Shown one piece after another: positions 4,547-60,098 of a DNA stretch of 64,000 nt. Each line of letters starts with the position of its first letter. The first letter of the stretch is position 1. This DNA comes from Escherichia phage phT4A. The stretch lies in sequence record NC_055712.1. One strand, 5' to 3'. The notes below the pieces were generated by a model. The model worked only from the letters and a program-made list of their open reading frames with translations. It searched no databases and was not told where the DNA came from. The position numbers and the translations under genes are program-made.

Positions 4547-4559
4547 ACAAGGTAAGAGA

Positions 4560-6054
4560 ATGAATGACATTAAAGTAGTAGTAAAATCCTCTGGTGTACG
4601 CCAGCCGTTTGACAAAGAAAAAATATACAAAGTGCTCAAGTGGGCCTGTGATGGTCATAATATCGATGTTCGTGCATTCCTTGAAAATGTATTAGAACTG
4701 ATCCGCGATGGTATGACTACCAAACAAATTCAACGTATCGCTATCAAGTATGCAGCAGATCATATTTCTGTTAAAGAACCGGATTGGCAATACGTAGCAT
4801 CGAATCTTGAAATGTTTGCATTGCGTAAAGACGTTTACGGTCAGTTCGATCCTATCCCGTTCTACGATCACATCGTTAAAATGGTTGAAGCGGGGAAATA
4901 CGATAAAGAGATCCTGGAAAAATACAGCAAGCAAGATATTCAAGTTTTCGAACGTGCAATTGATCATGATAAGGATTTTGAATTTTCGTATGCTGGTTCC
5001 CAACAGTTAATCGGGAAATATCTGGTTCAGGATCGCGATACTGGCGAAATCTTTGAAACCCCTCAGTATGCGTTTATGCTTATTGCGATGTGTCTGCATC
5101 AGGAAGAAACTGGGTTAGCACAGGTTACGCATATCGTTGATTTTTATAACGCAATTTCCGATCGCAAACTGTCTCTACCGACTCCAATTATGGCGGGTGT
5201 ACGTACTCCTACGCGCCAGTTCTCCAGTTGTGTAGTAATTGAATCGGGTGATTCTCTTGGTTCTCTTAACGCTGTAACCTCTGCGATCGTGAAGTATATT
5301 TCACAACGTGCTGGTATTGGGGTTAACGCGGGACATATTCGCGCAATGGGTTCTAAAATCCGTGGTGGTGAAGCTGTTCATACTGGTGTGATTCCTTTCT
5401 GGAAACATATTCAAACCGCTGTTAAATCCTGTTCACAGGGTGGCGTTCGTGGTGGTGCTGCAACACTGTATTATCCTTTCTGGCATCTGGAAGTTGAAAA
5501 CCTTCTGGTGTTGAAGAACAACAAAGGCGTAGAAGAAAACCGCGTTCGTCATCTTGATTATGGTGTACAGCTTAACCAGTTGATGTATAAACGCTTAATG
5601 AATCGTGATTACATTACGCTGTTTAGTCCGGATGTTGCTAACGATCGTCTGTATGATCTGTTCTATGAAGCTGATCAGACTGCATTTGAAGAACTGTATG
5701 AAAGCCTGGAAAAAGATCCAACTGTTCGTAAGAAACGCATCAAAGCGGTTGACCTGTTCCAACTTTTAGCACAGGAACGCGCACAGACAGGACGCAAATA
5801 CATTTTCAACACTCATCACGTCAACCAACAGGGTAGTTTTACGGTTCCTGTCCGTATGTCTAACCTGTGTTGTGAGATTGCGATCCCAACGTCGCCGCTG
5901 GATGACGATGATAAAATGGCTGGTGAAATCGGATTGTGTACGCTAATGGCTATCGTTCTGGATAACGCTGATATCAGCGAATTCCCGAAACTCACGCGTA
6001 TTGCAGTACGTGCGCTTGTATAACCTGTTGGATTACCGTAACTACCCTGTAAAA
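4560..6054 (+). CDS. nrdA: ribonucleotide reductase alpha subunit, N-terminal two thirds; frameshifted near 6018 and truncated by assembly gap
   Basis: ATP-cone N-terminus; active-site SNLCCEIAIP; frame 0 stops at 6021-6023 after AVRALV, but the +1 frame continues LYNLLDYRNYPVK, matching class I NrdA (AVRALDALLDYQDYP). Confidence 0.85.
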
Positions 6055-6154
6055 NNNNNNNNNNNNNNNNNNNNNNNNNNNNNNNNNNNNNNNNNNNNNN
6101 NNNNNNNNNNNNNNNNNNNNNNNNNNNNNNNNNNNNNNNNNNNNNNNNNNNNNN
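6055..6154. other. assembly gap (100 N)
   Basis: Run of exactly 100 N. Confidence 0.95.
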
Positions 6155-6571
6155 GCATGTGGTTAATGTTTTGTGTGGTAAGAAAAGATCACTTGACTTT
6201 TTGGATATATAAATGTATGAAAATCTGAATTCAACTTAACCCTTGATAAATGTGGTCGCATCGATCGAAGTTTTTGTTTAAAGTGTGGGTGAACTTAGGC
6301 ATTGTGTTTATTTTTATTGCAAATTAAACGATGAAATAGTATATGTTGGTAAATGTCGGGGATATGTGGAAGCGTTTAGACACATATCGCAATGCAAAGT
6401 ATTGGAGAGAAGCCAACCCCAGCAACATCTTAAAAACGTGTCGATTGGAAATGGCTATCAAAAAACGAAAAACTGTGAAACTTATCGTGACTACTCACGA
6501 TGAAAATACATATCATGATTATGAAATCAACATGATACGAAAATACAACCCTGAATGGAATAAACAGCACT

Positions 6572-7729
6572 ATGACAAAGGCACAAACTAAAATTATCAA
6601 TACCCTTTACAAACAACTCATGCAGTTGTGTGGTGAATCCGAAACATTTTTCTTCGTTGATCAAGTAACCGTGATGGGTACACCTGTTCGAATCTTTAAC
6701 TATCGCATGGCCTCATATACAGACTGGCTAAAGCCTGGTGCTCTGGAATGTCGCGGTATCATGTTTGAAATGGATGGAGATACCCCCGTATCAATCATCA
6801 GCCGCCCTATGGAGAAGTTTTTTAACTATGCCGAGGTAAAGGCATGGGAAGCGCTTAACGAGTCTCCTATTGAATTAGGCGAAGTTTTAGACGTGATGAT
6901 TAAAGAAGATGGTTCCTTGATCTCAACTTTCCTTGACGGTGGATTTCTGGCGGTCAAGTCTAAAGGTTCGGTTAAATCAGAACAAGCTATGGATGCGCAC
7001 AGCGTGTTAATGGCAAATCGTGAATTGCTGACCCGCTTAACTGAGATCGCTAAAGAAAACTATACGGTGAACATGGAATACGTTTCCCCGAAAAACCGTA
7101 TTGTCGTTGGTTATGATTCTCCTGATCTGCGTATCCTGAACGTTCGTCACAACATCACGGGTGAATACATCCCTTATGATGAACTCTTTGCTGACGCGCT
7201 GTTACGTGCGTATCTGGTTAAGCGTGAGAATATCGAAGTACTGGATCTGGATGCATTCGCAAAAGAAGCATATCAGAATGAAGGATTCGAAGGCTATGTT
7301 GTTCTGACAACGAAAGGGTTTGTAAAAATCAAAACAAACTGGTATGTCAATCTGCATCGCACAAAAGATAGCATCACCAACAATAAGGATCTTTTCCTAA
7401 ATATTGTTGAGAATACGGTCGATGACCTGAAACAGCTATTCAGTTCGGATCTGGTCTCTCTGAAAAAGATTGACGATTTCGAAAAACTTTTCCTTGATAG
7501 TCTCAATCGTTTGAGTGCAAAAGCGTTCAAAGCTATTGAAGATAATAAAGGGAAATCGCGTAAAGATTTTGCTATCAGTCTAAGCGCGGATTTGTCAAAC
7601 GACGGTCGGATCATCTTCGGGCCTCTTATGAAGTACTTCGAAGAAACCGATCCACAAAAACTGGTCGATCGCATCATTGAAATGATGGTTAAAAATTACG
7701 ATCAGTTCATTCCTGGAGAGTACAAGTGA
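6572..7729 (+). CDS. rnlA: RNA ligase 1
   Basis: Collinear with recalled T4 Rnl1: ALECRGIMFEMDG, SRPMEKFFN, KEDGSL (lysine nucleotidyl motif), EGYVV, C-terminal FIPGEY. Confidence 0.85.
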   Translation: MTKAQTKIINTLYKQLMQLCGESETFFFVDQVTVMGTPVRIFNYRMASYTDWLKPGALECRGIMFEMDGDTPVSIISRPMEKFFNYAEVKAWEALNESPIELGEVLDVMIKEDGSLISTFLDGGFLAVKSKGSVKSEQAMDAHSVLMANRELLTRLTEIAKENYTVNMEYVSPKNRIVVGYDSPDLRILNVRHNITGEYIPYDELFADALLRAYLVKRENIEVLDLDAFAKEAYQNEGFEGYVVLTTKGFVKIKTNWYVNLHRTKDSITNNKDLFLNIVENTVDDLKQLFSSDLVSLKKIDDFEKLFLDSLNRLSAKAFKAIEDNKGKSRKDFAISLSADLSNDGRIIFGPLMKYFEETDPQKLVDRIIEMMVKNYDQFIPGEYK

Positions 7730-9034: not shown

Positions 9035-9421
9035 ATGAATCTGTTTATGACTATTGGCGTTCCGGGTAGTGGAAAAACTACCTGGGCGCATGAGAAAGCC
9101 CGTGAATTGGGTAATACTGTTACGATCTCTCGCGATGATCTGCGTAGCTCTTTGTATAATGCNNNNNNNNNNNNNNNNNNNNNNNNNNNNNNNNNNNNNN
9201 NNNNNNNNNNNNNNNNNNNNNNNNNNNNNNNNNNNNNNNNNNNNNNNNNNNNNNNNNNNNNNGATACCAGGACAGATTTTGAAGTAAAAGAAGAAATTTT
9301 GTTTGACAAGATTTTAGATAAGTATTATCCTGTTATTGCAGTGGACGATAGAGACACTCCGGTCGGGATGTGGCGAGCAAACGGGATTCCGTGCTTACAA
9401 GTCGATTATGGTGATTTCTGA
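9035..9421 (+). CDS. pseT: polynucleotide 5'-kinase/3'-phosphatase, interior replaced by assembly gap
   Basis: N-terminal P-loop MTIGVPGSGKTTWA and C-terminal DTR.D..VKEEI...DDR...VGMWR..G..C.QV..GDF both match recalled T4 Pnk; 100-N gap at 9163-9262 replaces most of the gene. Confidence 0.8.
   Translation: MNLFMTIGVPGSGKTTWAHEKARELGNTVTISRDDLRSSLYNXXXXXXXXXXXXXXXXXXXXXXXXXXXXXXXXXXDTRTDFEVKEEILFDKILDKYYPVIAVDDRDTPVGMWRANGIPCLQVDYGDF
9163..9262. other. assembly gap (100 N) inside pnk
   Basis: Run of exactly 100 N. Confidence 0.95.
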
Positions 9422-16188: not shown

Positions 16189-16799
16189 AACCTGTTATTC
16201 TTACCGATATTGACGGGATCGCCGTAAAATGGCAGTCGGGGTTGCCTTTCTTTTTGTCTAAGCACAACATGCCTACTGATATTGCATTGGAAATGGTTAC
16301 GGATGAAAAATTTCGTGATATGACCGAAATCTTCGGATGTGATCAGCAGTTGGCTAAAATCCTTATGGAAGAATACAATAACAGTTCTTTCATTCGTTAT
16401 CTGAATGCGTATGATGATGCATTGATTGTGATCAACCGTCTGAAAACGCAGTATGATTTCGTTGCCGTTACCGCTCTGGGAACAACACCAACGGCAAGCC
16501 TTAACCGAATTGCTAACCTGAATACTCTTTTCCCGTCTGCGTTTAAAGAGGTGATGGTCGTGGGCCACGGTGAAACAAAAACTCATCGTTACCTGGAAGC
16601 AAAAGCAAAGTATGGTAATCGTCTGGTTTGCTTTGTTGATGATCTCGCGATAAACTTAAACGAATGTCATAACGTCATTAGTCAGTTGCCGTTATTCCAT
16701 ATGTTACGTGGTGAACGTGAAGAAACAAATGCACCTCACCAGTTAGTAAAATCGTGGTTTGAAATTGAAGAGAAACTAAATGATCTTGTCAATCCTTAA
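16185..16799 (+). CDS. HAD-superfamily hydrolase, possibly 5'(3')-deoxyribonucleotidase-like
   Basis: N-terminal ILTDIDG matches HAD motif I (DxDG); overlaps ligase start. Confidence 0.45.
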   Translation: MKPVILTDIDGIAVKWQSGLPFFLSKHNMPTDIALEMVTDEKFRDMTEIFGCDQQLAKILMEEYNNSSFIRYLNAYDDALIVINRLKTQYDFVAVTALGTTPTASLNRIANLNTLFPSAFKEVMVVGHGETKTHRYLEAKAKYGNRLVCFVDDLAINLNECHNVISQLPLFHMLRGEREETNAPHQLVKSWFEIEEKLNDLVNP

Positions 16800-18309
16800 T
16801 GAACTTGCGTCTACTCTGAAAACCAAAGAGAAAGAAGCAATTTTAAAACGTAATGCCGATAATGAATTATTGAAAGAAGTTTTCCGCATTACGTATACAA
16901 AACAGATTATGTTTTATGTGCGTCAATTTCCTCTGGTAGAAGGGAAACCAGGCACAACACCGCTTTCCGATGCAATCAAAGCATTGCTGGAAGATTTAGC
17001 AAGCCGGAAATATACAGGCAATGCAGCGCGTGATCGTTTACTGGATATTGTATCATCAGTGAACATTAACGATCGTGAAGTGCTACGCCGTATCATTAAC
17101 CGCGATCTGGAATGTGGTGCTGGCACAACCTTACCAAACAGGGTATGGAAGAAACTCATTCCTGAACAGCCTCAATGCCTCGCTACGCCGTTTAGTGAAA
17201 AGGCTTTACGTCGCATCATTTTCCCTGCTTACTCGCAGCTTAAAGCCGATGGTGCGCGTTGTATGGCTGATTTGTTGGAAGCATTAAACCGTAAAGTATC
17301 GAGGGCGGGTAACGAGTACGAAGGGTTAACCCAACTTGATATCGATCTGAAAAAGATTCGCGATTATCTGGGATATGATGTAGTTCTGGATGGAGAATTG
17401 ATTTATGTTCCTTCCGGAACCGTACCAACATTACCTGAACCTGAAACAGACATGCCTTTTTCTTTATCTGCTTTCATGGACGATGATGATAACGACATTG
17501 CGTTATTTGCGGAAGAAGTTCGCAAAGTATCGACCCCAGAAGAAGAACAGGCCGAAGCAAAACGCGAAGAAGGGAACGGGATCGTAAACAAATCTCTGAA
17601 AGGGACGATCACCGAAGAAGAACAGCGAAACATTGTTTATGTTGTTTGGGATATTATTCCATATGAGGTGTATTACGGCGAAGCTGAAAGTGTTCAGACT
17701 TATGATGAACGGTTTAGCCTGTTGCGTGATATCCTCCTGGATCTTTCTCTGCCTTCTGTTCGTTTGATTCAGTCTAAGCTGGTTAATAACATTGCAGAAG
17801 CGAAACAGGACTATAACAATTACCGCAATGACGGTAAAGAAGGTTCTATTCTCAAAAACAGAAACTTCAAATGGAAAGATTCGCGAGTAGCCGATCAGGT
17901 TAAGCTGAAAAACAAAACCCCGATTGAACTACGGATCATTGATATCTACGCGCACACTAAAGAAGACCATAAGGTCGGCGGGTTTGTGGTGGAAGATTTA
18001 TCCGGAATGGCTCGAACGAATACCGGATCTGGGTTAACTGATACCGATTATCGTTACGATGATGATGGTATTACCCGTGTATACATTCCATTAGATGAAC
18101 GTGGTGAACTGGATCGCGAATACATCATGGCGCATAAAGATGAATACATTGGGGCCATTGTAGAAATGGAAGTTGACGGCCTCCAGAAGTCGAAAACGCG
18201 TAAGAAAGGGGAACCGGAATACAGTTTCTTCCTTCCTATTATCAAGAAGATAAGACGCGATAAGACCGAACCCGACGATATTCATGTTGTCTTTGCAGAT
18301 CTATTTTGA
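16780..18309 (+). CDS. 30: ATP-dependent DNA ligase
   Basis: N-terminus MILSILNELAS and adenylation motif KADGARC match recalled T4 DNA ligase; LIPEQPQ, SRAGNEY also conserved. Confidence 0.9.
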   Translation: MILSILNELASTLKTKEKEAILKRNADNELLKEVFRITYTKQIMFYVRQFPLVEGKPGTTPLSDAIKALLEDLASRKYTGNAARDRLLDIVSSVNINDREVLRRIINRDLECGAGTTLPNRVWKKLIPEQPQCLATPFSEKALRRIIFPAYSQLKADGARCMADLLEALNRKVSRAGNEYEGLTQLDIDLKKIRDYLGYDVVLDGELIYVPSGTVPTLPEPETDMPFSLSAFMDDDDNDIALFAEEVRKVSTPEEEQAEAKREEGNGIVNKSLKGTITEEEQRNIVYVVWDIIPYEVYYGEAESVQTYDERFSLLRDILLDLSLPSVRLIQSKLVNNIAEAKQDYNNYRNDGKEGSILKNRNFKWKDSRVADQVKLKNKTPIELRIIDIYAHTKEDHKVGGFVVEDLSGMARTNTGSGLTDTDYRYDDDGITRVYIPLDERGELDREYIMAHKDEYIGAIVEMEVDGLQKSKTRKKGEPEYSFFLPIIKKIRRDKTEPDDIHVVFADLF

Positions 18310-36940: not shown

Positions 36941-37040
36941 NNNNNNNNNNNNNNNNNNNNNNNNNNNNNNNNNNNNNNNNNNNNNNNNNNNNNNNNNNNN
37001 NNNNNNNNNNNNNNNNNNNNNNNNNNNNNNNNNNNNNNNN
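36941..37040. other. assembly gap (100 N)
   Basis: Run of exactly 100 N. Confidence 0.95.
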
Positions 37041-37906: not shown

Positions 37907-37950
37907 ATAATACAAAAGCCCTCACGAGAACGCAAGGGCTTTTTATTAAA
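37907..37950 (-). promoter_or_regulatory. stem-loop + sigma70 promoter cassette (PeSL-like)
   Basis: Minus strand: hairpin GCCCTTGCGTTCTCGTGAGGGC carrying TTGCGT, 17-nt spacer, TATTAT. Confidence 0.5.
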
Positions 37951-38043
37951 TTTCGTATAAATCTGGATTCACAATAACCGCACATAAAAGATCATCTATA
38001 TGTGCGGCTTCTTGTTCTAAGGTTTGCTTAGATGAATGTGCTT

Positions 38044-38622
38044 TCAAGCAACCCCCGTAAAGGCGTTTACTATCTGGAAATGATCATCGAAGAATTCCCC
38101 TTGTCGTTGCACGACCTCATGCATAGGTAGCCAGAACGCGTCTGCTGCATCATCAGCACCGCCCATGATACGAGGCAATGAACCATCGTTATTAGGTTCG
38201 AGCTTGATATACTGTGCTACAGTCGGTTTTGAGAAGTACACCGAACGTTTCGGATGATCGAACAGCATCGAATTACGGATAGAACCACGAATAACCTTTT
38301 CAGGTACTTTAATTCGTACTTCTTCCAGTAATTCACGGATCGCACAATCAAGGAACGTTTCGTTACCGTTTTTGTGTCCACCCGGAAGCGCTAACGCATC
38401 TTTACCAGGCGCAAACTTACGACGGATTACTAACACGTGGTTATTACATACGACCACTGAATCAGCCGTGCAACAGTTCAGAGAATCCGGATACGGATAT
38501 TTTTTGAACTTGTCAATCTCTCGTTGCCAGTGCGCATCTTCATGGGACAAACGCTGGAATTCTTTTGTTTGTGTCCATTCATCGATAAAGGAAACCGTAG
38601 TGCTAGGCGCATATTTTAACAA
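38044..38622 (-). CDS. Nudix hydrolase
   Basis: Nudix box GGHKNGNETFLDCAIRELLEEV; overlaps the upstream NMNAT gene by 7 nt. Confidence 0.75.
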   Translation of the reverse strand: MLKYAPSTTVSFIDEWTQTKEFQRLSHEDAHWQREIDKFKKYPYPDSLNCCTADSVVVCNNHVLVIRRKFAPGKDALALPGGHKNGNETFLDCAIRELLEEVRIKVPEKVIRGSIRNSMLFDHPKRSVYFSKPTVAQYIKLEPNNDGSLPRIMGGADDAADAFWLPMHEVVQRQGEFFDDHFQIVNAFTGVA

Positions 38623-39116
38623 ATCTTCGTCCCAGCTTCATGGTGTTCCCAGATAATTTTGCGTAAATTGGTCGAGGACAGATCCTGGTCTCCAACCTTC
38701 ACAGATTCAACCGGAATATGATTCCATCCGAATGCTTTAAGCCAGTAAGAATCTTTGTCTTTTTCGTACCCGACGATCGCAATTCGGTCATTTCGAGTTT
38801 CATCGATTGCCATACGAACACGGGATTTCCATTTTTCCTCGTTATAGAGATAATCCGGAATGTGAGCGAATTTGATTCTGGCTGCATCTTCAACATCAAG
38901 TTTGCAGATAGACCAGCGAGTGATCATTGCTTGACGCTGTTTAGCGGTCAATGGGTTTAATGTGTTCGGATATGCATAAGCAGAACCGATCAGAATGTAA
39001 ACCGTATCAGCAACAGCAAGGGCTTCCCTTACCATTTTCTCATGACCATAGTGAAAAGGTTGAAAACGTCCAATTACTACAGCTTTATCATATTTGTGTT
39101 TCATAACGTGCTCCAC
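38616..39116 (-). CDS. nicotinamide-nucleotide adenylyltransferase (NadM-type)
   Basis: GRFQPFHYGH nucleotidyltransferase signature near N-terminus; about 166 aa. Confidence 0.75.
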   Translation of the reverse strand: MEHVMKHKYDKAVVIGRFQPFHYGHEKMVREALAVADTVYILIGSAYAYPNTLNPLTAKQRQAMITRWSICKLDVEDAARIKFAHIPDYLYNEEKWKSRVRMAIDETRNDRIAIVGYEKDKDSYWLKAFGWNHIPVESVKVGDQDLSSTNLRKIIWEHHEAGTKIC

Positions 39117-39280
39117 GTTTAAAGGTTAATCATAAAACAGACGCAATTATTAAAACACCAAACAATCCACCAATGAAACCAAAGAATAGTGAAATGAGTA
39201 TTGTCAATACGATCTGTTTTATGTTCATTATAGTATTCTCGTTTTAGATGTCAAGCCCCCAAAGAGGGGGCTTTAAAACA

Positions 39281-40207
39281 TTATTTACGAGAATCGAAAA
39301 TCACTTTACCCGCATAATCCGAACCCATTACAGTTTGAGGTACGCCACCTTTATAGCGGGTAGAGTAGTTCATCTGTACATCCAGTTCTTTCCAGCGGAT
39401 CATTTCCGGTGTAATGGTGCGTTGCAGGGCGGCGTTGGCTTCTGCTTCTTTCTTCGCTGCATACAGACGGGCATCAGCATCACGTTCGTTAGCGATTGCA
39501 GCGTTTTCACGCGCCTGGCGATCGGCTTCCGCTTGTTTTACTGCTTGTAATGAAGTCTGTTCTACTTTTTGCAGTTCAGCTTTAGCAGCGTTAACCTGTT
39601 CTTCGCGGATCTTCGTGTTAGTTACCTGTTCCATGATAACTTCCGGCAGGGTGATATCCTGCAAGAATACCTGTTTCACAGTGTAACCGTAAGGCCGTGC
39701 ATAATCTTCTACTTCCTGCTGAATTGCGATTTGCAGTTGGTTTTGGATCTTCGCATCAAACAGGTCTTGCGCTTTTGGTACGGATTTACCAAATTCGCGA
39801 ACAGTGGAAAGCAGTTTTTCAGTTACATACTTATCCAGTGCCTGATCCTGATTACCCGCGTTGATACGGTTGATCGGTGCTTTGCTACCGTCGAATTGCA
39901 GCATTACGGTCATATCCACAGTGGATTTAAATTTATCCTGGGACGGAACCTGTAATTTGTCGAACTTCATCGCGATGTCTTTGGTGCTGAACGTATCAAA
40001 CGTTGCCAGCGGGTTTACAATGTGGAAACCAGGCAGTACGGGTTTCGGTGATACTTTACCCATGAAGGTTTCAGTTTTAACCGTACCGTCTTGCACAATG
40101 GTATACATGTTAGGCACTAACCACAGTGCTGCGACTACGCCCAGAGCGATCAGAGAGGTTTTCTTCGGGTTGTTCACGATAGTGTTTAAGTTCATCATAA
40201 TTTCCAT
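39281..40207 (-). CDS. SPFH/band-7 (prohibitin/HflC-like) membrane protein
   Basis: N-terminal TM segment then a long Ala/Glu/Gln-rich coiled-coil typical of SPFH proteins. Confidence 0.6.
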   Translation of the reverse strand: MEIMMNLNTIVNNPKKTSLIALGVVAALWLVPNMYTIVQDGTVKTETFMGKVSPKPVLPGFHIVNPLATFDTFSTKDIAMKFDKLQVPSQDKFKSTVDMTVMLQFDGSKAPINRINAGNQDQALDKYVTEKLLSTVREFGKSVPKAQDLFDAKIQNQLQIAIQQEVEDYARPYGYTVKQVFLQDITLPEVIMEQVTNTKIREEQVNAAKAELQKVEQTSLQAVKQAEADRQARENAAIANERDADARLYAAKKEAEANAALQRTITPEMIRWKELDVQMNYSTRYKGGVPQTVMGSDYAGKVIFDSRK

Positions 40208-40999: not shown

Positions 41000-41047
41000 G
41001 CAAAAACGAGGCCAAGCCTCGTTATAATATTTTTGCTGTAAAGTCAA

Positions 41048-42745: not shown

Positions 42746-43219
42746 TTAATTCGCCTTACGAGGATCGAAATGAACGACAATGATCGGGTAATCACCAGTC
42801 ACCTCATTAATAATGCGCTTAATGAGTTCCCAGTCGCCCCCAGCGAGGCCAGCACCGATTAAAGGTGTGATGATAGGCTTTCCAGTCTTAACGGCGTCAG
42901 CAAGCCCTACAGCCTGTTTAAAAGCATTGCCGATTGCGTCATAATCGACACGCGGCCCAGGTGTCCAGAAATCATATTGAGTATATGCATTGAAAACAAT
43001 GTTGCCTTTTTCGCCAATGTAAACAGAACAAGTTCCGAGCTTATCACGGGAACCTTTTAACGTATTGGCATCAACTTGAAATGCACCAGGAATACGATCG
43101 CGGATTTCGCGAGCAATACCAGCGCCCATATTGCAATAGCAGTTGCATCCGTGGATCAAATGGCCTTCACCGTTCAGATACATATTGACAGCATTACCTT
43201 TCACTTCTTTAATGATCAT
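42746..43219 (-). CDS. macro-domain protein (ADP-ribose binding/processing)
   Basis: HGCNCYCNMGAGIAREI and PLIGAGLAGG resemble the macro-domain Gly-rich loops (NAAN...GGGV..AI, P.ISTG..G); start set at MIIKEVKG. Confidence 0.6.
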   Translation of the reverse strand: MIIKEVKGNAVNMYLNGEGHLIHGCNCYCNMGAGIAREIRDRIPGAFQVDANTLKGSRDKLGTCSVYIGEKGNIVFNAYTQYDFWTPGPRVDYDAIGNAFKQAVGLADAVKTGKPIITPLIGAGLAGGDWELIKRIINEVTGDYPIIVVHFDPRKAN

Positions 43220-49179: not shown

Positions 49180-49590
49180 TTAATAATCGTAAAGATCACC
49201 GAAACATTCGTCATACTCGCGTTTACGTTCAATTTGCTCGTTTCTACGATCTTCCATATATGGAGGAAGACGGTTTTCATTGACTTCATCAATGTAAGCC
49301 TGTGCATCCTCTTTTGTTAGAAAGAATGCATGGAAATTGTACCCGTTGTACCCGTTGTACCCGTTCATACTACGATCTTCAAGAGAGAATTCTGTGTGAC
49401 AGTCCCAGTCTTTGTACAGGGTGATACATTTAGCAAACAGCCCAATACCGCGATGAATGTATGGGAATCCAGTAACAATCATCTTGCTACCCATTTCCGC
49501 ATTTTCTCCGTTCACACAGAATACTTCATACATGATCGCGCCTGGTTTAACATCTTTCTTAACAGCACGTTTTTCAAAAGCACTTTTCAT
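49180..49590 (-). CDS. hypothetical protein with YNG tandem repeat
   Basis: ORF containing the 3 x 9-bp repeat. Confidence 0.4.
   Translation of the reverse strand: MKSAFEKRAVKKDVKPGAIMYEVFCVNGENAEMGSKMIVTGFPYIHRGIGLFAKCITLYKDWDCHTEFSLEDRSMNGYNGYNGYNFHAFFLTKEDAQAYIDEVNENRLPPYMEDRRNEQIERKREYDECFGDLYDY
49338..49364. repeat. perfect tandem repeat, 3 x TGTACCCGT
   Basis: Three exact 9-bp copies at 49338-49364 inside the CDS, in frame. Confidence 0.9.
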
Positions 49591-49644
49591 AATATATTCC
49601 TCTCAATTGGTGTAACTACAGATTACTAGTTTAGTTTCTGAATG

Positions 49645-59690: not shown

Positions 59691-60098
59691 TCATCTTGCT
59701 AAAATTTTAGGCAGTAGTTGCCCCATCGTTTTACGTGCATGTGACGGAATCTGTGATACTGGGACATATTTGAAATCATCCATTTCACGTATAGTCCGTC
59801 CGTTCTTAACGAAAGTGGATGCACAATAGCATTCTTCCGCTACTGGGTAATCTTGCCCTACATAGAGAAATAAAGCAAGGTTTTTTGTTTTCGTGTAATC
59901 GAGAACACCCAGGCTAACCAATTCCTCCGCGAACACTTCAAATCCTGTTTCTTCAAAGCATTCACGGATCGCCGCGTCAATATGAGTTTCGCCCTTTTCA
60001 ACATGCCCCTTCGGAATATCCCAATGGGGCGTTTCAGTGGCATGGCCCATCAACACGGCACCATCTTTAATAAAGATAATACCCGCTGATAGTTCCAT
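59691..60098 (-). CDS. Nudix hydrolase (second copy)
   Basis: Nudix box GHVEKGETHIDAAIRECFEETG. Confidence 0.7.
   Translation of the reverse strand: MELSAGIIFIKDGAVLMGHATETPHWDIPKGHVEKGETHIDAAIRECFEETGFEVFAEELVSLGVLDYTKTKNLALFLYVGQDYPVAEECYCASTFVKNGRTIREMDDFKYVPVSQIPSHARKTMGQLLPKILAR

Follow-up and report, generated by a model that had tools for sequence, protein, structure and literature searches.

The 64,000-nt stretch of Escherichia phage phT4A analysed here (NC_055712.1; hereafter the window) contains, between positions 38044 and 39116, two adjacent and overlapping open reading frames (ORFs), one with the features of an NMN adenylyltransferase (NMNAT) and the other with those of a Nudix hydrolase. 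The question raised by this locus is whether the two ORFs represent a real two-gene arrangement, i.e. a split NAD module, or whether a frameshift has divided one fused gene, both of which had been named as possibilities in the initial annotation.

Open reading frames and signals of the locus

The upstream NMNAT ORF is located on the minus strand at 38616..39116 and comprises 166 aa when counted from its GTG, and the downstream Nudix ORF (38044..38622, minus strand) comprises 192 aa when counted from its TTG. The two ORFs share 7 nt in different frames (38616-38622), exactly as first described. The listed GTG start at 39116 adjoins a Shine-Dalgarno sequence, GGAG (39111..39114, minus strand), which is situated 6 nt 5' of an ATG and is also annotated as the ribosome-binding site of CPT_Miro132 in phage Miro. 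Judged from the sequence, the true start of the gene, known as natV in related phages, is this ATG at 39104, in agreement with the annotation of phage Miro; the 166-aa ORF reported initially does exist from GTG, but the product counted from the real start has 162 aa.

Pfam assigned the NMNAT ORF to CTP_transf_like (E 1.5e-11) and the Nudix ORF to NUDIX (E 2.2e-13), in both cases over the gathering cut-off. Codons 1-156 of natV in the native frame (38637..39104, minus strand) make up the NMN adenylyltransferase part and contain both NMNAT motifs, namely GRFQPFHYGH (39042-39071, minus strand), in which the (H/T)xGH motif is present, and SSTNLR (38661-38678, minus strand), an SxTxxR motif that aligned with SSTAIR of Synechocystis slr0787 (PDB 2QJO). 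The Nudix box, GHKNGNETFLDCAIRELLEEVRI (38311-38379, minus strand), is part of a Nudix domain of the ADP-ribose pyrophosphatase type. The box had been described as canonical; it is present, but only near-canonical, with an R where the consensus GX5EX7REUXEEXGU has its last G, and the same substitution is found in slr0787.

A sigma-70-type promoter (TTGACA, 16 nt, TATAAT; 39227..39254, minus strand), which scored 12/12 matches in a consensus scan, is located ~120 nt upstream of the natV start and probably drives early transcription of the gene. Two hairpins 3' of the natV stop (37978-38007 and 37913-37945, minus strand) have counterparts annotated as terminators in phage Miro; both were read from the sequence in the interval 37913..38007, and a simple scan for such structures did not call either. 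Some pipelines annotate a hydrophobic ORF of 32 aa (39130-39228, minus strand) between natV and the gene upstream. The -10 hexamer of the natV promoter overlaps the ATG of this small ORF, so that a transcript from the promoter at 39227-39254 would begin 3' of that ATG and the small ORF may be no real gene. The gene directly upstream of natV (39281-40207, minus strand) encodes a 308-aa SPFH/Band_7 (HflK-like) membrane protein, and it adjoins natV in every related contig examined.

A single missing base in natV

In phages Miro, CP-p-KP-21068, KLB21 and R2_1 the gene is a single CDS for 353 aa that measures 1062 nt from ATG to stop, as against 1061 nt in the window. Relatives annotate it as one CDS, 'bifunctional NMN adenylyltransferase/NUDIX hydrolase', while automated pipelines use the term 'cytidyltransferase'. 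Alignment of the window with Miro, CP-p-KP-21068 and KLB21 showed a sole gap, CATGAAGGCTGGG of the relatives reading CATGAA-GCTGGG in the window, and located a 1-nt deletion at 38635..38637 (minus strand). Codon 157, GGC, is short of one G at 38636/38637 (CC to C at 38636 on the plus strand), and the codons CAT GAA GGC TGG GAC of the relatives accordingly appear as CAT GAA G-C TGG GAC. The inspection of reads proposed in the initial annotation had been directed at 38610-38625, an interval that does not include the lesion.

The frame ends after 156 native residues followed by AGTKIC and a TAA stop, an out-of-frame tail (38616..38636, minus strand) that is a product of the deletion. The native frame, closed by a TGA directly upstream of the deletion site, runs on over 196 codons until it reaches the normal stop. 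These codons (158-353 plus the stop; 38044..38634, minus strand) encode the last ~30 NMNAT residues, a linker and the Nudix domain, and no further damage was found in them. The picture of two ORFs is thus due to one deleted base.

The deletion is private to the window. A megablast search with the 1.4-kb region yielded 171 phage records, the best of which were 99-99.6% identical, and nearly all matches were to Klebsiella phages of Slopekvirus, a genus of the Straboviridae (KP15, KP27, Miro, Matisse, PMBT1 and others). The window belongs to this genus, in the KP15/Miro group; no copy of the window itself turned up in the collections searched, and the nearest relatives differed by ~1% over 7.5 kb. 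Identity to a 70-nt probe spanning the site was in the 95-99% band for each of the 111 phage records matched; no record reached 99%. Among the probe matches listed, 15 rows were 98.6% identical and each spanned 71 nt, showing that those records carry the extra base. All fetched loci covering natV (15/15) measured 1062 nt, one more than the window, and in a sample of 60 rows the full-length Slopekvirus matches were all exactly 1062 nt long, save that of CPRSB (1065 nt), whose natV annotation is in two pieces. Where the Band_7 neighbour was identical, an intact 353-aa CTP_transf_like+NUDIX gene was present in 10/10 contigs among the matches listed. Exact-pattern scans of IMG/VR, of the JGI metagenomes and of 185,579 GTDB species genomes did not find the deletion allele; the wild-type allele was present in IMG/VR. 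Likewise, a look-up of the exact products of the NMNAT ORF (162-aa and 166-aa versions) and of the Nudix ORF returned none among 153 billion called genes.

When the G was restored, the protein was identical (100%) to NatV of CP-p-KP-21068, of R2_1 and of one metagenome contig. At the DNA level, the window differed from each of these three relatives at 3-4 sites, all of them synonymous. By this comparison, the lesion is either very recent or an artefact.

Domain architecture and position of the break

The fused protein matched PHROG 395 (E 7e-100) along its entire length and could be aligned end to end with two bacterial NadM-Nudix proteins of solved structure, Synechocystis slr0787 (2QJO; residues 1-350 on 3-338, E 3e-53) and the Francisella tularensis enzyme (PDB 2QJT/2R5W; E 7e-44). 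Together with the Pfam assignments and the motifs, these alignments bore out the NadM-type NMNAT and Nudix domains proposed at the outset. HxGH, SSTxxR and a variant Nudix box with a terminal R are common to the phage protein and the bacterial proteins; the latter, however, are cellular enzymes, and the phage protein remains under their NCBIfam equivalog cut-offs. The best score with the bacterial PRK05379 models was 262.8 bits, under the equivalog cut-off of 397 (NF003786), these models being narrow bacterial subfamilies whose whole profile is still spanned by the match.

The repaired protein was 39% identical to NatV of Vibrio phage KVP40 (KVP40.0162, AAQ64231.1) over 348 aligned residues (E 8e-82), that is over the full length, and the earlier link to NatV and phage NAD salvage was thereby upheld. 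The two-domain architecture is common to both proteins. KVP40 differs in genus and host, and the copy in the window is frameshifted. Closer at hand are the Slopekvirus natV orthologues (Miro CPT_Miro132 / AKU44716.1, Matisse, KP15, KP27 and PMBT1), which show 98-99.6% nucleotide identity to the window and have neighbours like those in the window, with the Band_7/SPFH gene upstream and the terminators downstream; each orthologue is one ORF, whereas the window, without one G of codon 157, reads as two. Altogether, 466 phage records matched the fused protein, and 434 of them covered at least 80% of it. All relatives checked have both domains on one polypeptide, and so does the window with the base restored, but not the window as it reads, where the frame is broken at codon 157. 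With the fusion intact in the relatives and in the repaired window, the locus is to be regarded as a disrupted member of the NatV type and not as a different family.

The end of the NMNAT domain was set with the stand-alone models of NCBIfam, the envelope of Pfam CTP_transf_like being too short. On the fused protein, PRK13793 covered residues 4-187 and PRK01153 residues 7-191. As the upstream ORF stops at native residue 156, ~30 C-terminal NMNAT residues have been moved onto the Nudix ORF and, according to these profiles, the break lies inside the NMNAT domain and not at a domain boundary. Among the matches listed, the sole partial match ending near the break, from an Acinetobacter phage, covered residues 1-189.

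In the frame of the Nudix ORF the single full-length start is the TTG at 38620-38622. No AGGAGG-like sequence was found before this TTG, and the next in-frame start candidates fall within the Nudix fold. The TTG overlaps the TAA of the NMNAT ORF (TTGTTAA), and by re-initiation at this site some Nudix protein might be made.

Sequence quality of the window

The window is interrupted by three runs of exactly 100 N (6055-6154, 9163-9262 and 36941-37040), which stand for ~2205, 598 and 878 nt of the relative PV864763.1. Lost in these runs are parts of nrdA/nrdB; a polynucleotide kinase; and several small genes together with the start of an RlaP-type nucleotidyltransferase. The runs resemble scaffold gaps or masks, of indefinite length, and the window is therefore to be treated as unfinished sequence. 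A private 1-nt insertion was detected at 6019 (GCGCTTG-ATAAC in the relative, GCGCTTGTATAAC in the window) in the ORF at 4548-6023 (plus strand). It frameshifts nrdA, the gene for the large subunit of ribonucleotide reductase, after ~486 of 750 residues, and the first N run follows 36 nt further on. This insertion, which is probably a contig-end error, bears on the trust that can be placed in the natV deletion. A private 1-nt deletion was also found at 41013 in the loop of an intergenic hairpin, where the window reads AAACGAGGCC-AAGCCTCGTT and 11 related loci read ...GGCCGAAGCC.... Two of the private indels are thus coding (natV and nrdA) and several are intergenic, a pattern that does not separate error from mutation.

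Among ~170 ORFs taken from a relative, natV was the only one with a frameshift within a contig, and the deleted base is part of a 2-base run, not of a long homopolymer. Both observations argue against a generally error-prone assembly and make a genuine mutation quite possible. Otherwise, the only broken copies of natV among public records are those of CPRSA and CPRSB, in which the annotation is fragmented; this, like the gapped scaffold and the nrdA indel, speaks for an artefact. Weighing these points, we incline slightly towards an error in the consensus of a gapped draft assembly as the origin of the deletion, and give a genuine, very recent loss-of-function mutation almost an even chance.

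In OM971648.1 (Klebsiella phage CPRSA; fetched locus 1501-2559) and OM971649.1 (CPRSB), the annotation of natV is divided into two or three fragments. Genes beside natV are fragmented in CPRSA too, which points to indel-rich assemblies. Within the window itself, the ORF at 49180-49602 (minus strand) has a 9-nt in-frame insertion at ~49349-49360 compared with two relatives, in the form of a tandem GTACCCGTT repeat. At 6221-6588 (plus strand), directly behind the first N run, the counterpart of an endonuclease gene of the relative (121 aa) matches in two frames within sequence of only ~95% identity, which may reflect another frameshift or mere divergence.

NadV and the NAD+ salvage pathway

No Nampt/NadV was found within the 64-kb window by tblastn with Slopekvirus NadV (no match at E ≤ 10), as had been stated initially. 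In Slopekvirus genomes NadV is located ~73 kb from natV, beyond the stretch equivalent to the window (in KpF2, NadV at 16597-18030 and natV at 90533-91591), and the size of the window accounts for the negative result. If gene order is conserved, NadV would be expected ~48 kb past the window end. The phage homologues were located with a human NAMPT sequence, which served for this purpose only, and were confirmed by annotation and by a follow-up search. NadV was present at an identity of at least 95% in 111 records, a number equal to that for natV. In KVP40, too, natV and its partner NadV are encoded by one genome without being neighbours.

By homology, the N-terminal NadM-type domain of NatV would convert NMN and ATP to NAD+ and PPi, and the C-terminal Nudix domain would carry out hydrolysis of the ADP-ribose/NAD(H) pyrophosphatase type. 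Together with the phage Nampt (NadV), NatV would provide a route of salvage from nicotinamide to NAD+. This route, known as NARP2 and characterised with the genes of Vibrio phage KVP40, lets phages rebuild NAD+ depleted by defence systems such as Thoeris, DSR or SIR2. By analogy, both the NMNAT and Nudix activities and an anti-defence role are predicted for NatV of Slopekvirus. The Nudix substrates of KVP40 NatV reportedly include ADP-ribose and NAD(H), a result ascribed to Lee and colleagues (2017), and Huang and colleagues (2008) are said to have described NMNAT and ADP-ribose/NAD(H) pyrophosphatase activities in bacterial NadM-Nudix enzymes.

The natV gene, its fused architecture, its occurrence in Slopekvirus and the role with NadV in NARP2 have all been published. 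The bifunctional gene was already described for this phage group in the genome announcement of Matisse (PMC4591321), and NAD salvage has been noted for all Klebsiella Slopekvirus phages (PMC11845039). In the preprint whose authors defined the NARP2 pathway, the NMNAT/Nudix activity of KVP40 NatV is cited as known (bioRxiv 10.1101/2024.02.11.579819). The KVP40 NadV-NatV pair abolishes Thoeris and DSR2 defence, and the Nampt proteins of KP15, Miro and PMBT1 are given as 'Nmnat-associated', i.e. NARP2 (Table S2), in the same source (bioRxiv 10.1101/2024.02.11.579819), a listing that concerns the genus and not the isolate of the window.

Two other pathways, NARP1 (Adps + Namat) and NARP3 (PnuC + NadR), resemble NARP2 in rebuilding NAD+ during infection, but use other enzymes and other substrates (ADPR-PP, or imported nicotinamide riboside). 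In the region of the annotated relative that matches the window, none of Adps, PnuC and NadR was found. NARP3 was considered as a context for the locus and was rejected, its enzymes (PnuC + NadR) being unrelated.

Further genes of the window deserve mention in this connection. A Macro-domain protein is encoded at 42746-43219 (minus strand), ~3.6 kb upstream of natV, with a score of 30.1 bits against a cut-off of 22 for Pfam Macro. It shows weak similarity to the Macro domain of ThsA, is termed 'phosphatase' in some records and adds a further gene with a link to ADP-ribose. There is also a separate Nudix hydrolase with a single domain (135 aa; 59691-60098, minus strand; Pfam NUDIX, E 1.3e-14), which is probably the T4 NudE-like gene that was noted beside natV in the announcement of phage Matisse (PMC4591321).

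Discussion

The comparisons presented above leave little doubt that the locus is one frameshifted natV, which would encode the 353-aa bifunctional NMNAT/Nudix protein of Slopekvirus phages of the KP15/Miro group, and not an evolved two-gene arrangement. Of the two possibilities named at the outset, the frameshifted fused gene was substantiated by the private 1-nt deletion, and the split two-gene module was not, the break being inside the NMNAT domain. Separate working NMNAT and Nudix enzymes from overlapping, translationally coupled genes would find some support in the TTGTTAA stop/start overlap, the geometry of which can allow termination-reinitiation, in the position of both NMNAT motifs before the break and of the whole Nudix fold after it, and in the break itself, which falls in a stretch with a 3-residue gap relative to 2QJO and so may be a loop. 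Such an arrangement was, however, absent from all 111 related phage records and from every other collection searched; it is one base apart from the fused gene without accompanying adaptation, it cuts off ~30 NMNAT residues onto the Nudix ORF, and it depends on a TTG start with no good Shine-Dalgarno sequence, all of which makes it highly improbable. That both fragments are produced and come together again as a functional split enzyme is also improbable, if not to the same degree. A real deletion might moreover be compensated by programmed recoding, with full-length NatV restored by -1 ribosomal frameshifting or by transcriptional slippage, for a near-native protein would result from a -1 shift at any of the 7 codons that separate the TGA of the Nudix frame from the TAA of the NMNAT frame. 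We consider this hardly credible, since the 21-nt stretch concerned, GCTGGGACGAAGATTTGTTAA, has neither an X XXY YYZ slippery heptamer nor a homopolymer run of slippage length, and since the relatives are all in frame and none recodes here.

A different objection concerns the Nudix part, which might act on substrates unrelated to NAD or ADP-ribose (e.g. in dNTP sanitation) and be paired with the NMNAT by coincidence. The substrate of a Nudix enzyme is difficult to predict from its sequence, and weak matches to MutT, RppH and other Nudix models were indeed obtained (E 1e-3 to 1e-2). Against this, the region aligned over its full length, box flanks included, with the corresponding domain in the NadM-Nudix proteins of solved structure, the bifunctional PRK05379 models matched with E 3e-44 compared with E 1e-3 for MutT, the domain is fused to an NMNAT in 434/466 phage records, and the window has its own NudE-like Nudix gene at 59691-60098. 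There is accordingly very little chance that the pairing is coincidental.

The reading of the locus as one frameshifted natV has a practical value as a quality flag: a single frameshifted or pseudogenised natV should be annotated here, not two genes. If the deletion is genuine, the product would be an NMNAT with both nucleotide-binding motifs but minus its last ~30 residues, with little or no translation of the Nudix part. Together, these two defects would make natV null or severely weakened in that case. That the deletion is genuine and that the phage is a natural natV-null (NARP2-defective) Slopekvirus of very recent origin is a serious possibility, although not the one we favour. If the deletion is real, the phage would be a ready-made natural natV knockout for comparison, on Klebsiella hosts with SIR2-, Thoeris- or DSR-type defences, with its near-identical relatives. 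A natV-null phage, if true, would agree with a proposal according to which NARP2 is costly, owing to its use of PRPP, and dispensable on hosts without NAD+-depleting defences.
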